A DNA stretch of 64,000 bases from a virus: IMG/VR virus record IMGVR_UViG_3300005613_000026, positions 1-64,000 of that record. The stretch is one strand, 5' to 3'. The position numbers and the translations under genes were made by a program. Positions 7,976 through 27,173 of the stretch are shown piece after piece. The notes beneath the pieces were generated by a model. It was not told the origin of the DNA. It saw only the letters and a program-made list of their open reading frames with translations, and did not search any database. The stretch's first letter is position 1, and each line of letters starts with the position of its first letter.

Positions 7976-10597
7976 TTATCCAAAAATATCGGCAGATTCG
8001 ACACCTTTTTTGGCAGCTTTTCTCATATCTTCACGAGCATTAATAAATTGCTCTACAACTTTCTTAGGTTGTTTTGAAACTTTTGTACCCCAGAATCCCT
8101 CTGTAGCTAAAGCCTCGACTGCTCTAGTATCTACAATAGATAAATCAATTTTTTCTACAAAATCCCTCATATCAGGTTTAAAAGGTTGATTCTCTACTAT
8201 GTTCTTTACAACATTACTCCCTATTCCCTTACAATGTAAACTAGGTCTAATCTCAGTTACTACTCCTTCTTTCGGATCTCCTACTTTTTCTATCGTATAA
8301 AACTCTTTAGAATTATTAATACTACGAGGTAAAAATTTAACATTCATTTTCTTTGTAAATTCTTTCTCGAATGCCGCAATTTTATCATACTTATCTGCAA
8401 CATGAGAGTTCAAAGTCACATCCATCAGAGAGCAAATAAACTCATTAGGATAATTAGCTTTAAGATACGCTGTAATATATGAGTTATAACCGTAACAAGC
8501 CGAATGAGCCTGGTTAAATCCATAAGAAGAGAATGGTTTAATAAACTTATCCCAATATTGTTGAGCAACACCATTCGGAACCCCATTCTCAACGCAACCA
8601 CTAATAAATTGCTTTTCAAATTTAGCCATCAAAAACTCTTTCTTTTTACCGATAGCTTTAATCATAATATATCCATCAGTAATAGTAAAATTGGCTAAAG
8701 CATTACAAATCTGCATGACCTGTTCTTGATAACAATTGGAAATAAGTATTCCATTACCAAATAAATTATGATTATCAGCTACAGACATTCCATAAAATTG
8801 AGCATCCTTTATTTTCTCTATAGACCGTATTTTGTAAAAAAATAAATGAGATTTATGAAAACCGTAATCATTTATAAACGAACCATTACACAAAGCACTC
8901 ACAGAGATCACATCTCTTTTATTATAATTACTTCTATTTATTTTATATTTTTTACAAAATGCCCTAACTGAAAGATCTTCTAATTTTCTTTTTTCCTCCA
9001 CATATGACTTTTTATAAAAAACTGTCTTACACTTCCATAGGACTTTAGCATCTTTCTTAATATTCTTCAAAACCATATAAGGAGCAATGTCATCTTTTAC
9101 TCTCCTTCCATTCTGAAAATATATTTTATTATCTTTTAATCTTGTTTCTATTGCAAGCCAATCGCACAGATGCCTCACATCCTCAAGAAGATCTTTATTC
9201 ACACTTGTGTAATTCACATATAAACGATTATCTTTACCATAACCAATATAGCCATCAGAATCAATTAGCCCAGCCAATAACGCTCTTTGAGACTCTTCTG
9301 TCATTTTAAAAATTATAGGAGGTATCCTCTTATTGTAACAATTCTTTCTTAAATCCAAATCATCAATTAATTTTCCAAATTTTGTCTTTCTATTACCACA
9401 ATTTACTTCCTTCCAATCCTCAACGAGTTCATCACAACTAATAGAGATATACCAACTTCTTGTATGAAAATATCTATGAGTTTTTAGTTTTGGCAAACGA
9501 TTATTTATCCATTTTTCTAATATCTCACTTTTTTCCTCATCTCCCACACAAATATTAACTCCTTTATGAATATTTCCGTCCCCAATTAACATCCCTATTA
9601 AATAAGAAACATCTTCATCCATCCCCAACCATGAAAAACAATTATATTTATCTGTATCAATACCCCTACACAAAACGGAAGGGCATCCAACTAAATCTAA
9701 ATCTAAATCTAAATCTTTTACCTCTTTCATCCCCTCCCATGTGTAAACTTTATGATCATCTGTTAAAGTTACAGACCTCCCATTGGACAAAGTTACTTTA
9801 TAGCCATCACACCTGCGAGTTGGGGCACATCCATGACACTCTTTTTCCTCTACAAAGGTTGAATCAGGATATGACAATACCATATCTGATTTTCTAACAT
9901 CCTTAATGGGTTTATGAGATCCATCTGCCATACTAATTAATGTATCTTCATGTATGCACAATACTCCATAAGTTTTCTCTAAATATGGTTTCACATAAGG
10001 TTCAATAGACTTGTGAAAATAACTGACAGACTTTTCGCCTCTCTTGCGAGCGCAATATTCAGGAATACTATCCATAGGACCAGGGCGATACAAAGCCAGA
10101 CCTGCAACTACATCATCAAAACGGTCTACACCAATATCTCTCATTGTCCTCTGCATACCGTATCTCTCGCATTGGAACACTCCTCCCAGATTCCCCCTTC
10201 GATATAGTTCTAAAGTCGGATCATCATCTAAAGGAAGATTCTCAATATCAAGATCTATATCATAATTCTCTTTTACTCTCTCCGCTGTTTTCTTAATAAC
10301 AGAAAGGGTAGCGATAGCAAGAATATCAAATTTTATTAAACCAAGTAGTTCCAAATCTTCATTCGGGAACTGAGTCGCAAGCACTCCTTTTTTAGCTGTT
10401 CTAAGAGGAGCTATCTCATCAAGAGGTACGTTAGACACTACCATCCCAGCAGCGTGAGAATTATGAACAATTACATTATTTGCTATATAATTATGTTCAC
10501 TCTGAAAAAAATCGGGACCAGTGTCAATAGAGACATCATAAACATCTTTAAAATCTAACTCTTGTATAGAATCTATTTCATAAAGTTCAATGTCCAT
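7976..10597 (-). CDS. dnaE: DNA polymerase III alpha (DnaE), fragment 3: split-intein IntC + palm/fingers/HhH, with an internal LAGLIDADG intein
   Basis: HN|SHAAG, LIKFDIL, GVFQ, ALYRPGP, YGVL|intein|CYQEQ, YGFNQAHS, AYLKANYP and KGIG motifs. Confidence 0.95.
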   Translation of the reverse strand: MDIELYEIDSIQELDFKDVYDVSIDTGPDFFQSEHNYIANNVIVHNSHAAGMVVSNVPLDEIAPLRTAKKGVLATQFPNEDLELLGLIKFDILAIATLSVIKKTAERVKENYDIDLDIENLPLDDDPTLELYRRGNLGGVFQCERYGMQRTMRDIGVDRFDDVVAGLALYRPGPMDSIPEYCARKRGEKSVSYFHKSIEPYVKPYLEKTYGVLCIHEDTLISMADGSHKPIKDVRKSDMVLSYPDSTFVEEKECHGCAPTRRCDGYKVTLSNGRSVTLTDDHKVYTWEGMKEVKDLDLDLDLVGCPSVLCRGIDTDKYNCFSWLGMDEDVSYLIGMLIGDGNIHKGVNICVGDEEKSEILEKWINNRLPKLKTHRYFHTRSWYISISCDELVEDWKEVNCGNRKTKFGKLIDDLDLRKNCYNKRIPPIIFKMTEESQRALLAGLIDSDGYIGYGKDNRLYVNYTSVNKDLLEDVRHLCDWLAIETRLKDNKIYFQNGRRVKDDIAPYMVLKNIKKDAKVLWKCKTVFYKKSYVEEKRKLEDLSVRAFCKKYKINRSNYNKRDVISVSALCNGSFINDYGFHKSHLFFYKIRSIEKIKDAQFYGMSVADNHNLFGNGILISNCYQEQVMQICNALANFTITDGYIMIKAIGKKKEFLMAKFEKQFISGCVENGVPNGVAQQYWDKFIKPFSSYGFNQAHSACYGYNSYITAYLKANYPNEFICSLMDVTLNSHVADKYDKIAAFEKEFTKKMNVKFLPRSINNSKEFYTIEKVGDPKEGVVTEIRPSLHCKGIGSNVVKNIVENQPFKPDMRDFVEKIDLSIVDTRAVEALATEGFWGTKVSKQPKKVVEQFINAREDMRKAAKKGVESADIFG
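8735..9958 (-). mobile_element. Contiguous 408-aa intein with LAGLIDADG homing endonuclease in DnaE
   Basis: Starts CIHEDT; block B TLTDDHKV; LIGMLIGDG and LAGLIDSDG motifs; ends GILISN before C+1. Confidence 0.93.
10460..10597 (-). mobile_element. Split intein C-half (IntC, 46 aa) of DnaE
   Basis: MDIELYEIDSIQELDFKDVYDVSI...HNYIANNVIVHN followed by Ser+1 (SHAAG). Confidence 0.92.
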
Positions 10598-10847
10598 AAG
10601 ATTCCATCCTCAATTTTTTTAAAATTGACCATAAATCTTGTAATTCCTTAACATACTCATCTCTATCATATATTACAATTTTACTAACTTTTGTAGCCCA
10701 TACTAAAGCTTCCCTATGGGTTAAAAACCCATCTTTAACAACTTCCCATCCATCTTTTTTTATCTTCCATTCTTCACTAACTATATCATACTCTATAAAA
10801 ACTTCTTCATATTCGAATTGCTCATCTTCCAAATCTTTTATTAACAT
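10587..10847 (-). CDS. Small protein, DUF2188-like (tentative)
   Basis: WKIKKDG...FLTHREALVWA...IVIYDRD pattern; overlaps both neighbours. Confidence 0.45.
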   Translation of the reverse strand: MLIKDLEDEQFEYEEVFIEYDIVSEEWKIKKDGWEVVKDGFLTHREALVWATKVSKIVIYDRDEYVKELQDLWSILKKLRMESYGH

Positions 10848-11710
10848 TTAAACTCTCCTAACTTCTTGCAAATTCTATCTTTAACCTCTTCATCGCTCAT
10901 CTCTACAAAATCTTTTTCCCAAAAAACTAAAGTTTCATAACCACTATCAATACCTAGTTGCATCTTCTTAGCATCGTAATCCCATATATCCTTTGCTTTT
11001 CTTTTTTTGCTAGATATTATTATCTCACTTTTAGCATCATAAAATTCGGGATTAGCATGAAAATAATTTCCATTCATTTCTACCAATAACTTCCCATCAA
11101 CAAAAAAATCAAACAGTCTCCATTTCGTCTTACCATTTTCATAATAACTTAATGAAAAATTTCTAATATAATAAATACTATTCTGATCTAAAATTTTAGC
11201 CATTCTTTTTTCAGTGGACTTTGGATTTCTATTTCTATTAAAACTTTTCCAAGCTTTCTTTAATATCTTTAAATTCCTTTTCTTTCTCTTCTCAAAATTA
11301 GGAGCAGTATAAAATGGATTATTTAAACCTTCCCTTTGTTTCGCATATGACATAATAGCAGGATGATCATATTTCGTAAGACCCTTATTCCACAACCCAT
11401 CTCTCTCTATTTGATTCTTAGATGCCTCAGAAACATTTCTCATTTTAATTTGATAATAATGCATAGTATCAAGAAGAGTTTTTTTATTAACTTCCAACTC
11501 TTGACTCATCATTGGTGTAGATTTTTTTTCTTTTACATACATTTTAATTAAATTCTTTTTAGAAAACCTATCATCTTTTTCATACTTCCACTTATAAACC
11601 AGAATGGGACAATGATTCTTTTTCTTTTCTTTGCCATAAGAACTAGTTATATGTCTTTCCAAAGATACTCTTTTATTAAATTCTTTTCCGCAAATCTTAC
11701 ATTTATTCAT
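10841..11710 (-). CDS. Free-standing homing endonuclease, Vsr/DUF559-like PD-(D/E)XK, between the DnaE intein halves
   Basis: Likely start MNKCKICG at 11710 (GGGAGG SD). N-terminal C2H2-like finger, WNKGLTK and NNPFY motifs, C-terminal FDFF...LVEMNGNYFH...FWEKD. Confidence 0.85.
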   Translation of the reverse strand: MNKCKICGKEFNKRVSLERHITSSYGKEKKKNHCPILVYKWKYEKDDRFSKKNLIKMYVKEKKSTPMMSQELEVNKKTLLDTMHYYQIKMRNVSEASKNQIERDGLWNKGLTKYDHPAIMSYAKQREGLNNPFYTAPNFEKRKKRNLKILKKAWKSFNRNRNPKSTEKRMAKILDQNSIYYIRNFSLSYYENGKTKWRLFDFFVDGKLLVEMNGNYFHANPEFYDAKSEIIISSKKRKAKDIWDYDAKKMQLGIDSGYETLVFWEKDFVEMSDEEVKDRICKKLGEFKC

Positions 11711-11777
11711 TATTATACCTCCCGCAAGAAATAACACTGCTGGCATAATAATTCTACTATTCCTCAAAAAATCCTTT
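11709..11777 (-). promoter_or_regulatory. Class-2 promoter (AAGGA-N15-TAGAAT) overlapping a hairpin that sequesters the endonuclease RBS/start
   Basis: RNA arms AUUAUUAUGCC (11742-11752) and GGUAUAAUAAU (11709-11719) form an 11-bp stem; AAAGGATTTT lies at 11768-11777. Confidence 0.7.
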
Positions 11778-12767
11778 TTTTATTCCATAAATTTTGTATT
11801 TTTCTTTATTCTTTCTAATTTTTTCAAACTCAACACATCCTTGATCTGTAAAAATAAGATGCTCATCAGTTACATCTATAAATCCACCATCTTTGAGTTT
11901 TAATCTATATGTTTTCTTCCTACCTGTTTTAAATAATCTATACTTGTTAGTATAGAAGATATTTCCATCCTTATTAATATATGCTATAGAAAATTTAGTA
12001 GAGAGTTGATCTATTCTCGTCCATCCCTTATCAGTCAAGATAGGTGTATCTTTAGCTAAACACCCGAAATTAACAAATACATTTTCAATAACAGGTGCAT
12101 GTTTTTTTATTTCAGGATAAAGATCCATAAATTCTCTAAAAGTAGAGCAATGAGCATAAGCATCCTCATATGTTTTAATAATATGGTCTTTCCCGTCATC
12201 GTGATCTCTAACCTTTACTAACCCCTTCTTTGGGAAAGGCTCTAGAATCTCAGTGACCTTTGCTGCATTTTCTGTCTTATAGGCATCAGGTCCTTTATGA
12301 AATGCTTGAGCTATATCAAGAGCTTTTGTGACTCTGGTAATACAGGATTTAAATTTAAGCAATCCATGAGTCCCAATATTCCCAACATTCTCCCTGCCAT
12401 ATCTGTCAATAATATACTTGTAGACTGCATCTCTATTCTCATCATCAAAGTCTGTATCAATATCAGGAAATCCTGCCCTTGCAAAAGCTCTACGAGTAGG
12501 CAGAAAATCCCCAGACGGTTTAAAATCTGTCATTTTAAGAGCATATGCTGTCCAACTATTGATATCATTTTTATTTCCTACTTTACCCTGATTAGCCTTC
12601 CATATAGAATAAAAAACATCTAGATTATTCTTATTCTCTAGTCCTTCCGTAGAAGACAAAATATCTAATTCTTCTTCCACTTTTTGAGTGATTTGTGCTA
12701 ACTTGGGATTATCTTTATGAATAATCTTAACACAATCTAATATTTCAGCTTTTTTGTCTTTACTCAT
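11757..12767 (-). CDS. dnaE: DnaE fragment 2: palm (PDIDTDF) and thumb + split-intein IntN
   Basis: GFPDIDTDFD, YIIDRYGRENVGNIGT, then VNFG|CLAKDTPILTDKG. Confidence 0.95.
   Translation of the reverse strand: MSKDKKAEILDCVKIIHKDNPKLAQITQKVEEELDILSSTEGLENKNNLDVFYSIWKANQGKVGNKNDINSWTAYALKMTDFKPSGDFLPTRRAFARAGFPDIDTDFDDENRDAVYKYIIDRYGRENVGNIGTHGLLKFKSCITRVTKALDIAQAFHKGPDAYKTENAAKVTEILEPFPKKGLVKVRDHDDGKDHIIKTYEDAYAHCSTFREFMDLYPEIKKHAPVIENVFVNFGCLAKDTPILTDKGWTRIDQLSTKFSIAYINKDGNIFYTNKYRLFKTGRKKTYRLKLKDGGFIDVTDEHLIFTDQGCVEFEKIRKNKEKYKIYGIKKGFFEE
11760..12062 (-). mobile_element. Split intein N-half (IntN, 101 aa) of DnaE
   Basis: Block A CLAKDTPILT and block B DVTDEHLIFT; the ORF stops without blocks F/G. 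Confidence 0.92.
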
Positions 12768-21765: not shown

Positions 21766-22587
21766 TTATCGACCTATTATTTCCTTGCTTAAAGGAATGA
21801 GAAATGTGTTTTTATTCTGTACTATTTTGGAGATTCCAACACCCATATTCTCTTCTATATTAAAATGCTGTTGGATATCAAATTTGAAAACTAGAATAGT
21901 TGGCAAATTACTTTCTACTCTATCTATAAAAAAAGAATCAATTGTATCAACAAGATATGCCTGTTGCTCTCTAGAAGCATAGTGAGGTCGAATTATGTTA
22001 TCCACTACCAACCATGTACAACTTCTTAACTGAGCTGCTGTTTCAGTATCATTGCGAATTTCGTCTTTAAGTCTTGGGAAATCGACCCAATCATAGCTTT
22101 GGCCTCTTTGCCCTTTTCTAATCCTAAGTTTTATCGCCTCTGCCAGAGCTATAGAAGCTATTAAAGTTCTTCCTATTTTTTCTGGAGATTTACCATAAAT
22201 AACAAGACCAGCACCTTCTTTAAGTCTTCTAGACATCATAGAATTATGACGCATATACTTGCTAATATCTTTGTCATTCCCTTTGAATTCTGAGAAAAGA
22301 TTTGTCCAAGTTCTTCCCCAACAATATTTACAAATAGAATCTTTGGCTTGAATAGCTATATCCTCTGGAATAACTCGAACCGATTGTCCATCTTTAGATA
22401 TCTGACCATCAAAATCAAATATATTAAGATTAGGTTCGGGAACGTACAAATCAATATAAGCCCTAACCTCAGCCATCATAGAACATTTATAAAGAGAATC
22501 TCCACAAAGCTCATGTGGAGACTTCTCATAATACTTATTAGAAAAGAAACTTAAATATTTTTTCTTTAAACCTTCAATATTTTTCAT
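21766..22587 (-). CDS. DnaC/IstB-like helicase loader with degenerate Walker A
   Basis: GLVIYGKSPEKIGRT, WLVVDNI and RVESNLPTIL motifs; directly upstream of dnaB. Confidence 0.65.
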   Translation of the reverse strand: MKNIEGLKKKYLSFFSNKYYEKSPHELCGDSLYKCSMMAEVRAYIDLYVPEPNLNIFDFDGQISKDGQSVRVIPEDIAIQAKDSICKYCWGRTWTNLFSEFKGNDKDISKYMRHNSMMSRRLKEGAGLVIYGKSPEKIGRTLIASIALAEAIKLRIRKGQRGQSYDWVDFPRLKDEIRNDTETAAQLRSCTWLVVDNIIRPHYASREQQAYLVDTIDSFFIDRVESNLPTILVFKFDIQQHFNIEENMGVGISKIVQNKNTFLIPLSKEIIGR

Positions 22588-23681
22588 AGATCAAGTTCTT
22601 TTTCACCACTACCCATTTCTACTTTTTCTTTATAAACCGCATTGGCTTTACGACAACGAGTCTCAGCCCACTCTCGAATTCCCTCAAAATCTCCTTCACG
22701 CATTACAGACAAAGGTTTAAAAGTTGCCATTGCATCAATGATATCCTTAGTTTTAATTACTCTTCTCTTGTCTCGAAAACCAACAACCATTGCTTCAGTG
22801 ATAGCTTTTTCAAGTTCAGCTCCGCTATATCCTTCTCCCCTTACAGCTATTGAATGAAGATCAAATTTCTTAGGGTTCAAGCCTCGACGTTTCAAATGAA
22901 CTTCAAGAATTTCAACCCTTTCATCTAGGTAAGGCAAATCAACAAAAAAGATTTCATCGAAACGACCTGGACGAAGAAATTCAGGTGGTATTGCTTCTTG
23001 ATCGTTAGCAGTTGCTACAACAAAAACAGAACTAGTTTTCTCCTGCATCCATGTTAAAAAAGTTGACAAAACTCGACTTGTTGTTCCCCCATCGCTCTGA
23101 CCACTTGACCGAACGCCACTAATAGCTTTTTCAATCTCATCAATCCATAAAATTGCAGGAGCAACTGCCTCTGCTAAGCGTATTGCTTCACGAGCATTCT
23201 TCTCGGAATCACCAACAAGGGACCCGAAAAGTTTACCAAAATCCAACCTCAGTAAAGGCATGTTCCAGTAACCACTGATAGCCTTACAAACCAGAGACTT
23301 GCCGCAATTATGAGAAACTATTCCGTTAGAATAATATCTGCTTTCCTCACTATCAACTTGTAAATCAAAAGTGTCCATCTCTCCGATATATGATTTTCCA
23401 ACTATCTTAATATTTCCATTTTTAGTAACAACACAATCAATATTCTCATTAACATCCTTTGACTCTACCCACCCATCTGTTGTTAATATCTTATGACTCT
23501 CAGAACAACTGAGTTCCACTCCATCTTCTAATATAAGATTGTAACATTTTTTATTTTTTTTTCTAACAAGAAAATTTATATCTTTCCACCCATCAGGAGT
23601 CTCTATTTGATATACCCCTTCATCTTCGCACATTTTGAAAAAATCAGAAATTTCCACTTCTTTAATTTCATCAACATTCAT
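22584..23681 (-). CDS. Ycf46-like AAA+ ATPase, C-terminal fragment carrying a 125-aa IntC
   Basis: SHN|CGKSL, LLRLDFG, LWIDEIEK, VATAN, PPEFLRPGRFDE and YSGAELE motifs. Confidence 0.93.
   Translation of the reverse strand: MNVDEIKEVEISDFFKMCEDEGVYQIETPDGWKDINFLVRKKNKKCYNLILEDGVELSCSESHKILTTDGWVESKDVNENIDCVVTKNGNIKIVGKSYIGEMDTFDLQVDSEESRYYSNGIVSHNCGKSLVCKAISGYWNMPLLRLDFGKLFGSLVGDSEKNAREAIRLAEAVAPAILWIDEIEKAISGVRSSGQSDGGTTSRVLSTFLTWMQEKTSSVFVVATANDQEAIPPEFLRPGRFDEIFFVDLPYLDERVEILEVHLKRRGLNPKKFDLHSIAVRGEGYSGAELEKAITEAMVVGFRDKRRVIKTKDIIDAMATFKPLSVMREGDFEGIREWAETRCRKANAVYKEKVEMGSGEKELDL
23307..23681 (-). mobile_element. Atypical split intein C-half (125 aa, includes block B)
   Basis: ETPDGW, ELSCSESHKILT, TFDLQV and YYSNGIVSHN, then Cys+1. 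Confidence 0.92.
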
Positions 23682-24583
23682 AATAATTTCCTTTCTTTGT
23701 TAAATATTACTTGTATACGTTCTTCATATTTTTCTACAAACTTTATTTCTTTTTTTAACCATAAATTTAAGATATCATCAATATTCATAATGTCAACATC
23801 TACTATCCTATATTCTAAACCATTATCTTTACAAAAATTAATAGCTGCTTCTTTCTTTTTTACATTTAATGGAGTATTCATTAATTTTTCAGGTTTTATC
23901 TCAATTAAAATTCTATCCTCTAAAATAAAATCTGGTCTATATGTCCTATCATTACCTTTATGGTCTTTATATTTAATTTTAATTCCTTTTTCAGCACTTC
24001 TCCATTTAATTTTATTTTTTTCTATCACCTCTACCATATACGATAATTCTCTTAAACTTCTAAAATACCATCCTTTGTACCACCCGCTCCATCCTCCTCC
24101 ACTTCCATGAGGAGAAGGCTTCCCATACATAGGATTATTTGAGCCAGATGAATTAACAGACCTAATTTCTGACAATTCTTTCATTCTTAAATCTGCATTT
24201 TCTACTCCATATTTTTTCACCCATATATCATAGAAATTTTTACCATACATAGCATTATTTTTTCCAGAAGTAACTTTTGACATTTTTTCTTTAAATTTTG
24301 CAGTTTTATAAATATTAAAGTCCCTATCCTTAATCATCTTTACCTTTGATTCTTCCGTATGCCTTTTGCCGAAAAAAGGATTACCAGAACCCTTATATTT
24401 TTTACTTAATAATGCAGCTCTTTCTTTATTTTTTAATATCACTTCTGGTCTTAAATGGGCATTCTTATGACTGCAAGAAATACAACATAACATCTTTTTT
24501 TCCGCAGTATTTCTATTTTTCTTATTAGAATAACTTAACTCTTTTCCACACTGTGGACAACTCCTGAAATATCTCTTATCCAT
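23678..24583 (-). CDS. Free-standing homing endonuclease (NUMOD3-like repeats + TnsA-like PD-(D/E)XK) between the AAA intein halves
   Basis: GNPFFGKRHTEESK, NNAMYGK and NNPMYGK repeats; FRSLRE, YRPDF and IEIKP motifs; likely start MDKRYF at 24583. Confidence 0.85.
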   Translation of the reverse strand: MDKRYFRSCPQCGKELSYSNKKNRNTAEKKMLCCISCSHKNAHLRPEVILKNKERAALLSKKYKGSGNPFFGKRHTEESKVKMIKDRDFNIYKTAKFKEKMSKVTSGKNNAMYGKNFYDIWVKKYGVENADLRMKELSEIRSVNSSGSNNPMYGKPSPHGSGGGWSGWYKGWYFRSLRELSYMVEVIEKNKIKWRSAEKGIKIKYKDHKGNDRTYRPDFILEDRILIEIKPEKLMNTPLNVKKKEAAINFCKDNGLEYRIVDVDIMNIDDILNLWLKKEIKFVEKYEERIQVIFNKERKLL

Positions 24584-24649
24584 AATATAATATCCTTTCA
24601 CAAAAGCATATCCTTAATTGACATGCTAGACAATGGACTATTATATTAT
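24581..24649 (-). promoter_or_regulatory. Long RNA hairpin sequestering the endonuclease RBS and AUG
   Basis: Outer stem AUAAUAUAAUA(G)UCC / GGAUAUUAUAUUAU (14 bp, one bulge); inner stem AGCAUGUC / GAUAUGCU (8 bp). Confidence 0.75.
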
Positions 24650-25659
24650 TTATTATAAATTTTCATTTTTCCTTCTTCTGATATTTTTTTTATTTTTATT
24701 TTTGTCCCAGCTGCAACGCACCCAGGCATACCAATAGCTAACATACCACGAGGCTTTTCAAGACCATATGCCTCAGCCTCTTTGGAAAAGTTGTCGCTAC
24801 GAGCTTCAATCCAATGAACTAGATTCTTCAAACCACCGACATCTGTCATCTCAACAATCTGATCGTAATAATCAAGCATACCACTTTTAGAGATAACTTG
24901 TTTTTTCTCTTTTAAAATAGCTTTAATATCCCATCCTCGTTTAGAAACCAAAGATTTACTAAAAGCAGTTTGAGCTTCTGACAAACTTAAACCTGTAACC
25001 GAATTAATAAGAATTTCTTCCATCTTCTTAGTCTGTTCACGAATATTGGGCAGTTTTGTTTCAACGCTACCAACAACTTGATAAAGAGATGCTTTAATTT
25101 CTTTTTGAGTAGCAAAAGGAAATTCCATACATGGCATTAAATAATCGATAGCATCTGTTGACTTGTAAGAACATCCTGTTATAATGGTCGAAACAATACC
25201 ATTCAAGCCCGCAATTACCTTAAGACGACGCTCTATGTCTGGGTCCTCCTGAATAAAACGATGATAATCCAAAAGAATAAAAATAATACCTTTAACGCCA
25301 GCAGCCCTCTTCTCATTTACAGATTCTCTTTTATTAACAAATAATTTGCCTCGGCTTATGATGTGATTTAGAATCTCCATTGGATCATTTGATATATCAT
25401 CAGAAATTGCTGAATCTTTCTCCTTTGTCTTAAGATCAACAAGACCATTATAAGCGTCCCATACCTTAATTTCATAACCATTTGCCGTGCCGAAATGTTC
25501 AATAAAATCAATGAAACGTCTTTCTTCATGCAATTTTACATAAAAAAGAGGATATCGAACTCTTAATAAAGTAGAAAATTCCTCTTTAAATTCATCAGTT
25601 GCCATTTCTTTAAGTATTTTCTCACTTGCACTTTTCTCAACTTTAGATTCACTAGGCAT
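24646..25659 (-). CDS. Ycf46-like AAA+ ATPase, N-terminal fragment ending in a 24-aa IntN
   Basis: RYPLFYV..HEE.R, ILLDYH, GLSLSEA, EKKQVISKSGML, DVGGLKNL and PRGMLAIGMPG|CVAAGT motifs. Confidence 0.92.
   Translation of the reverse strand: MPSESKVEKSASEKILKEMATDEFKEEFSTLLRVRYPLFYVKLHEERRFIDFIEHFGTANGYEIKVWDAYNGLVDLKTKEKDSAISDDISNDPMEILNHIISRGKLFVNKRESVNEKRAAGVKGIIFILLDYHRFIQEDPDIERRLKVIAGLNGIVSTIITGCSYKSTDAIDYLMPCMEFPFATQKEIKASLYQVVGSVETKLPNIREQTKKMEEILINSVTGLSLSEAQTAFSKSLVSKRGWDIKAILKEKKQVISKSGMLDYYDQIVEMTDVGGLKNLVHWIEARSDNFSKEAEAYGLEKPRGMLAIGMPGCVAAGTKIKIKKISEEGKMKIYNK
24649..24720 (-). mobile_element. Atypical split intein N-half (24 aa)
   Basis: CVAAGTKIKIKKISEEGKMKIYNK*; block A only, inserted within Walker A. 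Confidence 0.88.
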
Positions 25660-25707
25660 TTTGTTCCTTTCTACATCAATATTACATCTTATAAATTTTA
25701 TTTACAT

Positions 25708-26217
25708 CTACGATGGAGACAATGTTGTTGATATTCTAATAGCCTTGCCTCCTTTTGAAACTTGCAAAGGAGACCAAGTAGCTTTTGATTCAAATTTCTC
25801 CAAACTTTCTTCAATTTTCATTCTTCCCTGTTCAACCAATCCTTTTTCCCTTCCTCTCAACTCAACAGTATAATGGACTATATATCTTTTGTCAAGGAAA
25901 TTTTCAACTTTTTTTTCTTTTATTTCTAAATCATGATCAGAAATACGGTAACTAAAACGAATTTCTTTAGTAACTCTTTTTTGAGATTTCTTCTTTTTAG
26001 ATTCTCGATATTTCAACTTACCATAATCCAAAATTTTACAAACAGCTAATTTTCCGTGCTGTTCAGGAGCCATCTCAACTAAATCTAAATCCATTTCTCT
26101 GGCCATTTCAACGGCCTCTTTTAATTCTACCCCTCTTTGTATCCCCTCTCCTTCAGGAAGTACAAGATCTACTCTATTCGATTTAATTTGATAATTAATC
26201 TTGTGATCTTTGCTCAT
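25708..26217 (-). CDS. infC: Translation initiation factor IF-3
   Basis: INYQI, EAVEMAREMDLDLVEM, VCKILDYGKLKY, KEIRF, ISDHDLEIK and RGRE motifs. Confidence 0.92.
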   Translation of the reverse strand: MSKDHKINYQIKSNRVDLVLPEGEGIQRGVELKEAVEMAREMDLDLVEMAPEQHGKLAVCKILDYGKLKYRESKKKKSQKRVTKEIRFSYRISDHDLEIKEKKVENFLDKRYIVHYTVELRGREKGLVEQGRMKIEESLEKFESKATWSPLQVSKGGKAIRISTTLSPS

Positions 26218-27173
26218 TAGCGATTTTTTAACCTTTCATAAAATTTAATTGTATTTTCATCTGTGTCTCTAAATTCTATAGACACTTTAATATCAGGAAT
26301 TATTGAACCAAGTATACCTTCTACATCTTTAAATGGCAACCATGACGGATAGGGCGAAAACTTCTCTGTAGATTCTACTACTGAAAAAAGAGCATTTCTA
26401 CGCAACATTTTTCTGCATCCACTTTTAACCATCTCGATTGCTTCTTCTTGTTTCATCATTTTTACCTTTATAAGCCAATTAGTAGAAAGCACAATCCCAA
26501 AATTAGATACAAGAGAGGAATCTCCTAAAATAAAAGACTTTTCTAAATCAGTGTTTCTTGGCTTTTTTATCTCTTTTTTTTCTTTTTCTTCCACTTTATT
26601 ATACTCTTCACAACTTTTGGATAAATCATATTTAGACTTAAAAGACCTAATAGCAGCTTTATTTAATAAATGACTAAAATAAAAATTACCTTCTTTATCC
26701 TGTCCTCTTAAAAAATCTATATAATTCTCAAAAAAGAAAATTATATAATCTTTCATCATTAACCAATGAAAGGTCCCAAAAGCTTCCTCTAAAACGCTCC
26801 TGGCTCTATTAATATCTATTTGAGCAGGAACTCTTTGCAAAAGCAACTCCTCATTGTATTTTTCTCTATATAAATATACAACATAAAAGAAAACATCTGC
26901 TGTATTCCATTCTAAAATAGGTTTATCCCATCTCATGCCCGTGTATTTAGGTTTTTCTATATCTAAATAATCCAGAGTTTTTGGATATCTACCAGAAACA
27001 GCAAAACCTTCATCATTATCTTGTATTATATCATTCTCTGATAGTTTGTCAATAACTTTTTTAGATTTTTTAGATTTTTTAGATTTTCTCTTACGAGAAT
27101 CTGTAAAATTAGGTCTTTCTCCTGTTACTTTTTCAAAGGCATCCTTCATCATTTTGTTAACCATATCATTCAT
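26217..27173 (-). CDS. Hypothetical protein
   Basis: 318-aa ORF with a short KKS repeat near the N-terminus. Confidence 0.7.
   Translation of the reverse strand: MNDMVNKMMKDAFEKVTGERPNFTDSRKRKSKKSKKSKKVIDKLSENDIIQDNDEGFAVSGRYPKTLDYLDIEKPKYTGMRWDKPILEWNTADVFFYVVYLYREKYNEELLLQRVPAQIDINRARSVLEEAFGTFHWLMMKDYIIFFFENYIDFLRGQDKEGNFYFSHLLNKAAIRSFKSKYDLSKSCEEYNKVEEKEKKEIKKPRNTDLEKSFILGDSSLVSNFGIVLSTNWLIKVKMMKQEEAIEMVKSGCRKMLRRNALFSVVESTEKFSPYPSWLPFKDVEGILGSIIPDIKVSIEFRDTDENTIKFYERLKNR

Follow-up and report, generated by a model that had tools for sequence, protein, structure and literature searches.

Locus anatomy and the host ATPase

The DNA analysed here is a stretch of 64,000 nucleotides (the window; positions 1 to 64,000 of the IMG/VR virus record IMGVR_UViG_3300005613_000026), and the element under study lies on its minus strand at 22584-25659, where three consecutive open reading frames (ORFs) were found: gene 1, an endonuclease gene and gene 3. 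Genes 1 and 3 encode the two parts of an AAA+ ATPase that is broken within its Walker A motif, and each carries at the break one fragment of a predicted intein (IntN, N-terminal; IntC, C-terminal). Gene 1 (24646-25659) encodes 337 amino acids (aa), namely an N-extein of 313 aa (24721-25659) ending AIGMPG, in which GMPG is the first half of Walker A, followed by the 24-aa IntN (24649-24720), CVAAGTKIKIKKISEEGKMKIYNK, and a stop codon (24646-24648). IntN comprises Cys1, block A, strands beta1-beta2 and a conserved 10-residue tail. The stop codon and a spacer of 62 nucleotides (nt; 24584-24648 with the stop), which holds the stem of an RNA hairpin, are followed by a free-standing endonuclease, probably of the homing type, of 301 aa (23678-24583); the ORF finder reported this frame as 23678-24601 from a GTG, and the ATG at 24583 is the likelier start. 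The TGA that ends the nuclease gene overlaps the ATG at the start of gene 3 (ATGA, 23678-23681). Gene 3 (22584-23681) encodes 365 aa, consisting of the 125-aa IntC (23307-23681), with helix alpha1, block B (S60-x-x-H63), block F (D106) and block G (H124-N125), and a C-extein of 240 aa plus the stop (22584-23306), which contains the +1 Cys of CGKS (the second half of Walker A), the AAA core and the lid. IntC ends YYSNGIVSHN and the C-extein opens CGKSLVCKAIS.

The N-extein and the C-extein were 60-62% and 73-74% identical, respectively, to the corresponding parts of the intein-free relatives P0037, P0041 and P0042. The exteins sum to 553 aa (313 + 240), and P0042, also of 553 aa, reads unbroken through the site as TIGMPGCGKSLVCKAIS, including GMPGCGKS; this contiguous motif is found in intein-free orthologues of 552-553 aa. 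On the PHROG family phrog_8638 (568 positions), gene 1 matched profile positions 6-316 and gene 3 positions 315-550; because these matches abut, the two exteins are adjacent parts of one protein. The initial annotation of this DNA, made from its letters without database searches, had described a gene ending in GMPG and a 24-aa tail, an endonuclease and a 125-aa IntC ending SHN/CGKS (the slash marks the junction), and had proposed that splicing would restore GMPGCGKS in a 553-aa ATPase. All of these elements were found where it had placed them, and both the extein sum and the intein-free relatives agree with the proposed product.

Its assignment of the host protein to the AAA+ ATPases was borne out by Pfam matches of the C-extein to the AAA core (PF00004, 89.9 bits) and lid (PF17862, 28 bits). 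The further label 'Ycf46-like' comes from Joint Genome Institute (JGI) names only ('SpoVK/Ycf46/Vps4 family'); NCBIfam hits to PAN, CDC48 and FtsH were far below their cut-offs, with no equivalog among them, and the host is described here as a phage classic-clade AAA+ ATPase. When named phages were searched with tblastn, only the C-extein was matched (by Corndog-like AAA-ATPases and others, without the intein), at 38-43% identity among the 40 records listed and under 60% in all 179. There was no match in a megablast search of 22000-26500 against GenBank phages.

A run of eight A residues (A8) lies within the IntN coding sequence and the record is a metagenome-derived fragment, both of which would suit an artefact in which frameshift errors, at the A8 run for instance, had disrupted what is really a contiguous intein that contains a nuclease. 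The residues after the run fit the family consensus and the stop is at the conserved position, so a frameshift artefact was ruled out at this point. The nuclease is read in a different frame, with its own start codon and Shine-Dalgarno (SD) sequence; stop-terminated IntN tails are present in 26 other N-half proteins; and the same three-ORF layout, with the same stop residue, was found in independent contigs from other samples (L033, L084, L161 and L164). The probability of an artefact is accordingly judged to be negligible. Read from sequence, the pattern is far beyond chance, and the layout recurs in independent contigs. In the Logan contigs of four runs, short pieces from X1 reproduced 23279-23475, 23548-23825 and 23919-24105 with 0-1 differences, the region of the ATGA overlap (23548-23825) being matched by two public contigs with 0-1 differences. 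X1 may be the source sample of the window, and its matches are hence not counted as independent support.

Conservation, fold and split site of the intein

Conservation of the C-half was assessed among the best 120 of 8000 scored gene 3 relatives, the scope that also applies to the C-extein tree described below. IntC was found at the N-terminus in 45 of the 120 (window included), while 72 were intein-free at the site and 3 were unclear; among 110 gene 1 relatives, 27 were N-halves ending in an IntN tail. The tail is exactly 24 residues long in 22 of these 27 (22, 25, 25, 26 and 35 in the others), and the position of the IntN stop is judged to be under selection. Within the 22 tails of 24 residues there is no variation at C1, V2, I8, K12, I13, G17 or I21, and hardly any at Y22.

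The residues expected to carry out splicing are conserved as well. Cys1, which immediately follows GMPG, is kept in all 27 N-half tails, and S60, H63, D106, H124 and N125, together with the extein residues GKS, are invariant in 41 IntC-ExtC proteins that are 46-78% identical. In 61 more diverse sequences H63, D106 and N125 are still invariant. Of 45 C-halves, 28 have C at the +1 position, 15 have T and 2 have S; it is Cys in the window. Retention of every splicing residue across relatives of 46-78% identity lends indirect support to the suggestion in the initial annotation that the ATPase matters to the phage.

In a search of Protein Data Bank (PDB) sequences IntC matched gp41-1 (5e-8), CatC (3.9e-5) and VidaL (4e-5), as well as DnaE inteins; used as queries by themselves, neither the initial 50 residues of IntC nor the final 34 of gene 1 gave matches above chance level. 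An AlphaFold (AF2) model of IntC alone, built from 61 aligned sequences, had a mean predicted local distance difference test score (pLDDT) of 90.8 and a predicted template modelling score of 0.80. With this model Foldseek gave 56 PDB matches at E <= 0.001, and all 42 of those listed were inteins or related HINT (bacterial intein-like) domains; the best was VidaL (6vgv; E 4.1e-8, template modelling score 0.88, root-mean-square deviation (rmsd) 1.2 A). VIA-align found 83 chains at Z >= 8 and placed model residues 1 to 125 on residues 17 to 141 of VidaL (Z 19.1, rmsd 1.6 A, 123 residues aligned, 24% identity). The locus therefore shows a block A nucleophile, blocks B, F and G, a +1 nucleophile, the HINT fold and intein-free read-through alleles, which are the features of a class-1 intein. 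The element is assigned to that class, with splicing itself predicted.

Two natural atypical split sites have been described, S1 after strand beta2 (VidaL, PolB16) and S2 after helix alpha1 (AceL-TerL, GOS-TerL), with an IntN of 16 aa in VidaL (PMC13014065). In the AF2 model helix alpha1 (residues 11-18, ISDFFKMC) sits within IntC, and in VIA-align IntC residues 4-5 align to residues 11-12 of contiguous inteins. Because alpha1 belongs to IntC and residue 1 of IntC falls on residue 17 of VidaL, where the IntC of VidaL begins, the split is placed at S1, as in VidaL, and not at the AceL-TerL site. CatC aligned only from IntC residue 25 in the PDB sequence search. AceL-TerL as the closest relative, and with it an S2-type split, was rejected on the position of alpha1 and on the finding that TerL-type C-pieces with a 'CEF' junction begin 15-22 residues later than the IntC of the window. 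An atypical split had been proposed in the initial annotation, with AceL-TerL as the example: the 24-aa IntN, the separate ORFs and the break in Walker A were upheld, whereas the likeness to AceL-TerL gave way to the VidaL site.

IntN is 8 residues longer than that of VidaL. Its first ~14 residues correspond to the canonical beta1-beta2 fragment and are followed by the 10-residue tail EEGKMKIYNK. The contiguous orthologue P0324 was also modelled (mean pLDDT 81.5); there the counterpart of the tail follows a turn and folds as a short strand (a beta2-beta' hairpin), and the break falls in a low-confidence linker between this hairpin and the strand and helix alpha1 that open IntC. The two fragments carry opposite charge: IntN has a mean net charge of +4.2, and the 27 residues that precede the TPDGW motif of IntC have a mean of -6.1. 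Complementary charge patterns of split inteins are discussed in the available text of Dassa et al. 2009 (PMC2677866).

We regard it as very probable that the locus is a fractured gene, in which two ATPase polypeptides are joined by a naturally split class-1 intein cut at S1. The basic 24-residue IntN would dock on the acidic N-terminal region of a largely pre-folded IntC and so complete the HINT fold; Cys1 would form a thioester, Cys+1 would attack it, Asn125 would cyclise, and ligation of the exteins would give an ATPase of 553 aa whose GMPGCGKS P-loop is intact. The charge match would favour tight binding with or without this chemistry, and the intein pieces might serve only as an affinity clamp that assembles the ATPase non-covalently. 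A precedent of that kind is the fragmented gene nrdA of the large subunit of ribonucleotide reductase, whose enzyme is reassembled by protein-interaction domains according to the available text of its source (PMC3045599). Binding, however, needs none of Cys1, His63, Asp106, His124, Asn125 or a nucleophilic +1 residue, all of which are kept, and a P-loop into which 149 foreign residues are inserted would probably not bind ATP. A clamp without splicing is thus considered improbable.

The endonuclease, allelic states and probable mobility

The nuclease matched two Pfam families, PF07460 (NUMOD3 repeats) at 42.5 bits, above the cut-off, and, in its C-terminal part, PF08722 (TnsA-N-like PD-(D/E)XK) at 38.1 bits against a cut-off of 26.5. 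It also contains a CxxC...CxxC zinc ribbon and was assigned to phrog_15427 ('endonuclease'). E179, E188, D218, E228 and K230 are invariant in 15 relatives; D218, E228 and K230 make up a classical D...ExK catalytic motif, which is thus intact. There was no relative among PDB entries by sequence. A Vsr-like family was considered for the nuclease and rejected on the classical motif and the lack of any Vsr hit. Its genomic context makes it likely that the nuclease is of the homing type, and cleavage of the element-free allele is predicted.

The region 24570-24660 is predicted to fold into a hairpin (-20.4 kcal/mol, z = -2.62) whose stem pairs with the SD sequence and AUG of the nuclease; comparable stems were found in L033, L161 and L164, and a weak one in L084. 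Sequestering of the ribosome-binding site by this hairpin apparently represses translation of the nuclease. At the junction of nuclease and IntC, L164 likewise has an ATGA overlap, L161 a 34-nt overlap and L084 a 4-nt gap. The ATGA overlap suggests that translation of gene 3 is coupled to the nuclease stop.

The initial annotation had proposed a search for unsplit and intein-free alleles, and both were found. Besides the 72 intein-free relatives, a contiguous mini-intein occupies the same site in P0328 (721 aa), P0327 (704 aa) and P0324 (734 aa), the last of which resembles IntN, a 20-residue linker and IntC in succession; because of these contiguous orthologues the two split pieces are regarded as one intein. 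Seven distinct split loci with DNA context were available, namely the window, L033, L084, L161, L164 (= L168), L006 and L194. In five of the seven (window, L033, L084, L161 and L164, to which L168 is identical) a nuclease of 47-57% identity lies between the halves, and in the other two there is none (a 52-nt gap in L006 and ~140 nt in L194). P0133 and P0128 are in-frame fusions of nuclease, IntC and C-extein. In L205 (2018-4093) a 691-aa frame was observed to run straight into IntC; its N-terminal part matches no family, and there was neither BLAST similarity of this frame to the nuclease nor a nuclease Pfam hit.

In the C-extein tree 24 changes are required to account for the split state, and well-supported branches force 10 of these. 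Sister pairs of one split and one intein-free allele occur at branch lengths of 0.013 and 0.038, and a contiguous and a split form are paired with 98% support. The element is AT-richer than its host gene, with a GC content of 28.2% against 34.7% and 40.5% in the exteins. Because split alleles are scattered on the tree and the element is AT-richer, recent gain and loss of a mobile element is the likely history. The nuclease gene probably made the split by insertion into the S1 loop of a contiguous mini-intein, and the nuclease is the likely driver of the element's mobility.

Several points weigh against a fractured gene that is restored by trans-splicing. Ligation is read from anatomy and homology and not from protein, and the Pfam intein model PF14890 scored weakly on IntC (25.7 bits against a cut-off of 35.8). 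The C-half counts and the tree cover the best 120 of the 8000 relatives, the tree being a quick maximum-likelihood version of 119 rows. The beta' strand of the IntN tail had a pLDDT below 50 in the P0324 model, so the role of the 10-residue tail is tentative. None of the pieces from the four Logan runs spans the IntN stop or the whole locus. The window lies within an 87,575-base linear virus record with a single ATPase copy, and since CheckV rates this record only 18% complete, a second intact copy may lie elsewhere in the genome.

The Pfam score under the gathering threshold, a search for RNA runs with the locus that listed none, and the fact that invasion of a coding sequence by a nuclease is usually disruptive, would also suit a dead gene, in which such an invasion destroyed a contiguous intein and left ORFs as decaying remnants that yield no working ATPase. 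Both ORFs are intact, however, and the splicing residues and ATPase motifs are invariant in the 41 relatives; 22 of 27 N-halves share the codon position of the IntN stop; and L006 and L194 persist as split loci without a nuclease, which is not expected of unselected remnants. A dead gene is therefore held to be very improbable, and two polypeptides joined by the split intein remain the preferred reading.

Distribution, known systems and genomic context

IntC was searched against 1.84 billion cluster representatives, giving 814 proteins at E <= 0.001. Of the best 150 representatives 143 had an intein domain that reaches the C-terminal junction, and in 85 of these 143 the protein opens with the intein piece, Met being the first residue in all but one of the 85 (84). 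The view in the initial annotation that such splits are rare therefore holds for characterised examples and does not hold for metagenomes. An S1-like start (-8 to +12 residues from the IntC start of the window) was found in 76 representatives, some of which may be truncated at contig edges, and a P-loop follows in 36 of the 76. Other hosts are further AAA+ proteins and Clp-type ATPases (L228, L229, L246 and L252); terminases and DnaB- and RecA-like proteins were recognised solely by visual inspection of motifs. When IMG/VR was scanned with just IntC, no relative was confirmed; scans with the whole of gene 3 and with alignment A1 did give relatives. At least one further split locus (L084) came from the metagenome scan.

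Relatives of the nuclease were found at 34 IMG/VR loci, of which 30 were examined after removal of four apparent duplicates. They occur in five S1-split P-loop inteins and otherwise between genes. The same intein family, accompanied by the same nuclease family (37-57% identity), was found at the identical P-loop position GxxG/xGK[ST] in at least 4 different ATPases: the AAA+ ATPase of the window, a ClpB-D2-like protein (L246, L252) and, in L243 and L245, two P-loop proteins of no assigned type. In 8 of 24 intein-less nuclease loci a Walker A motif lies -7 to +78 nt from the nuclease stop (12-20 nt in 6 of them); as a baseline, Walker A was present in the first 45 residues of 31 of 1467 ORFs (2.1%) across all fetched loci. 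The nuclease family may recognise Walker-A-coding DNA, such that the intein-nuclease pair hops between unrelated P-loop ATPase genes (ectopic homing) and not only between alleles, a proposal that we make tentatively and hold to be rather doubtful. If it were true, the intein would shield the carrier genome by splitting the target sequence.

The surroundings of the free-standing nuclease copies were recorded as a separate observation. In L237, L244, L259, L263, L265 and L268 the nuclease relative ends 12-20 nt ahead of the codons for Walker A in the gene that follows, and the genes that follow encode, among others, a polynucleotide kinase-phosphatase, a thymidylate kinase and further small proteins with a P-loop. 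Elsewhere, copies lie upstream of 5'-3' exonuclease and C5-methylase genes.

Both the mechanism and the architecture are known ones: the locus is a fractured gene, and its intein is of the naturally atypically split kind. The fractured genes of Dassa, London, Stoddard, Schueler-Furman and Pietrokovski (2009) consist, like the present locus, of two same-strand host ORFs with split-intein halves, with a free-standing gene for an endonuclease between the halves, and are of phage origin (PMC2677866). A hairpin upstream of the nuclease start and an overlap of the nuclease 3' end with the start of IntC are shared as well (section 14 of that source), as is the existence of an allelic locus without the nuclease (PMC2677866). 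The differences, within the available text of that source, lie in three features. Its hosts are eight DNA-synthesis and repair enzymes, the terms ATPase, AAA and P-loop occurring 0 times in that text; its nucleases are GIY-YIG or Vsr-like, whereas that of the window combines a TnsA-N-like PD-(D/E)XK domain with NUMOD3 and a zinc ribbon; and all of its inteins except one are split canonically, between motifs N4 and C2, whereas the window intein breaks at S1 (PMC2677866).

Natural split inteins with a short IntN that are named in the literature, as far as it was available, are AceL-TerL, GOS-TerL, VidaL and PolB16 OarG. VidaL (PDB 6vgv/6vgw) is naturally atypically split, Cys-dependent and of the S1 type, and shares class-1 Cys1 chemistry with the window intein (PMC13014065, in its available text). 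AceL-TerL, GOS-TerL and the consensus Cat, with IntN lengths of 25, 37 and 30 aa and an S2 split (PMC11766414 and PMC13014065, likewise), are atypically split phage inteins with a short IntN and belong to the same broad family as the window intein, as the CatC match indicates. TerL proteins with the 'CEF' junction were found among the IntC homologues, and the hosts of these three inteins are terminases, whereas that of the window is an AAA+ ATPase. PolB16 OarG is a natural S1-type split whose short IntN (15 aa) is suited to peptide synthesis, like that of the window; unlike the window intein it has cysteine-less catalytic residues (Ser1/Ser+1), a DNA polymerase B host and a 168-aa IntC (PMC10189870, in its available text).

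VidaL and the window intein are alike in their short IntN and their long, largely pre-folded IntC, and VidaL was the best structural match; they differ in the length of IntN (16 aa against 24 aa, with the extra tail), and sequence similarity between them reaches only E 4e-5. Their host proteins differ, that of VidaL presumably being a T4-like helicase or UvsX.

The 'classic' intein site in P-loops is GK/T (PMC5050341), and the insertion in the window (GxxG/CGKS) lies three residues upstream of it. Literature searches turned up neither an AAA+ ATPase with an atypically split intein nor a TnsA-like/NUMOD3 homing endonuclease. The host protein with its insertion point, the conserved IntN tail and the nuclease type were not found in the literature searched.

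A homologue of IF-3 (25708-26217, minus strand; TIGR00168, 98.8 bits against a cut-off of 60) lies upstream of the ATPase, and the order IF-3 then ATPase recurs in L006, L033 and L084. Downstream lie a DnaC-like gene (named by eye, without a family search) and DnaB. ATPase relatives were observed on contigs of 200-550 kb; since the record is 18% complete at 87.6 kb and these contigs are of such size, the phage is probably very large. The C-terminus of the ATPase (22587-22601) has, like most relatives, a conserved acidic-hydrophobic tail (ELDL, NLDL or IDI; alignment A1). A second, contiguous intein just before Walker B (AP/C...HN/CILWIDE) was seen in many relatives (P0015, P0017, P0018, P0078, L033, P0323, P0125 and P0127), some of these inteins with a LAGLIDADG-type domain (PF14528); the gene of the window is uninterrupted there (AVAPAILWIDEIEK).

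The window also contains a second fractured gene, dnaE, at 7976-12767 on the minus strand. Its N-half (11757-12767) ends in a long, canonical-type IntN and is followed by a 308-aa nuclease-like ORF (10841-11767) with weak C2H2 zinc-finger Pfam hits only, which is different from the nuclease of the ATPase locus, and then by an 86-aa ORF. The C-half (7976-10597) has a short IntC at its start and apparently also a large contiguous intein.

Protein semisynthesis and labelling call for natural split inteins whose IntN is small enough to be made by peptide synthesis, and the large and diverse S1-type family described here would be a useful source of orthogonal or faster variants, given its Cys, Thr or Ser at +1, its IntN tail and its complementary charges. 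The family adds a PD-(D/E)XK nuclease type to the fractured genes and takes these beyond the enzymes of DNA metabolism. A single orthologous gene holds all stages of gene breaking, from intein-free through a contiguous mini-intein to the split state with or without the nuclease and to the nuclease fused to IntC.

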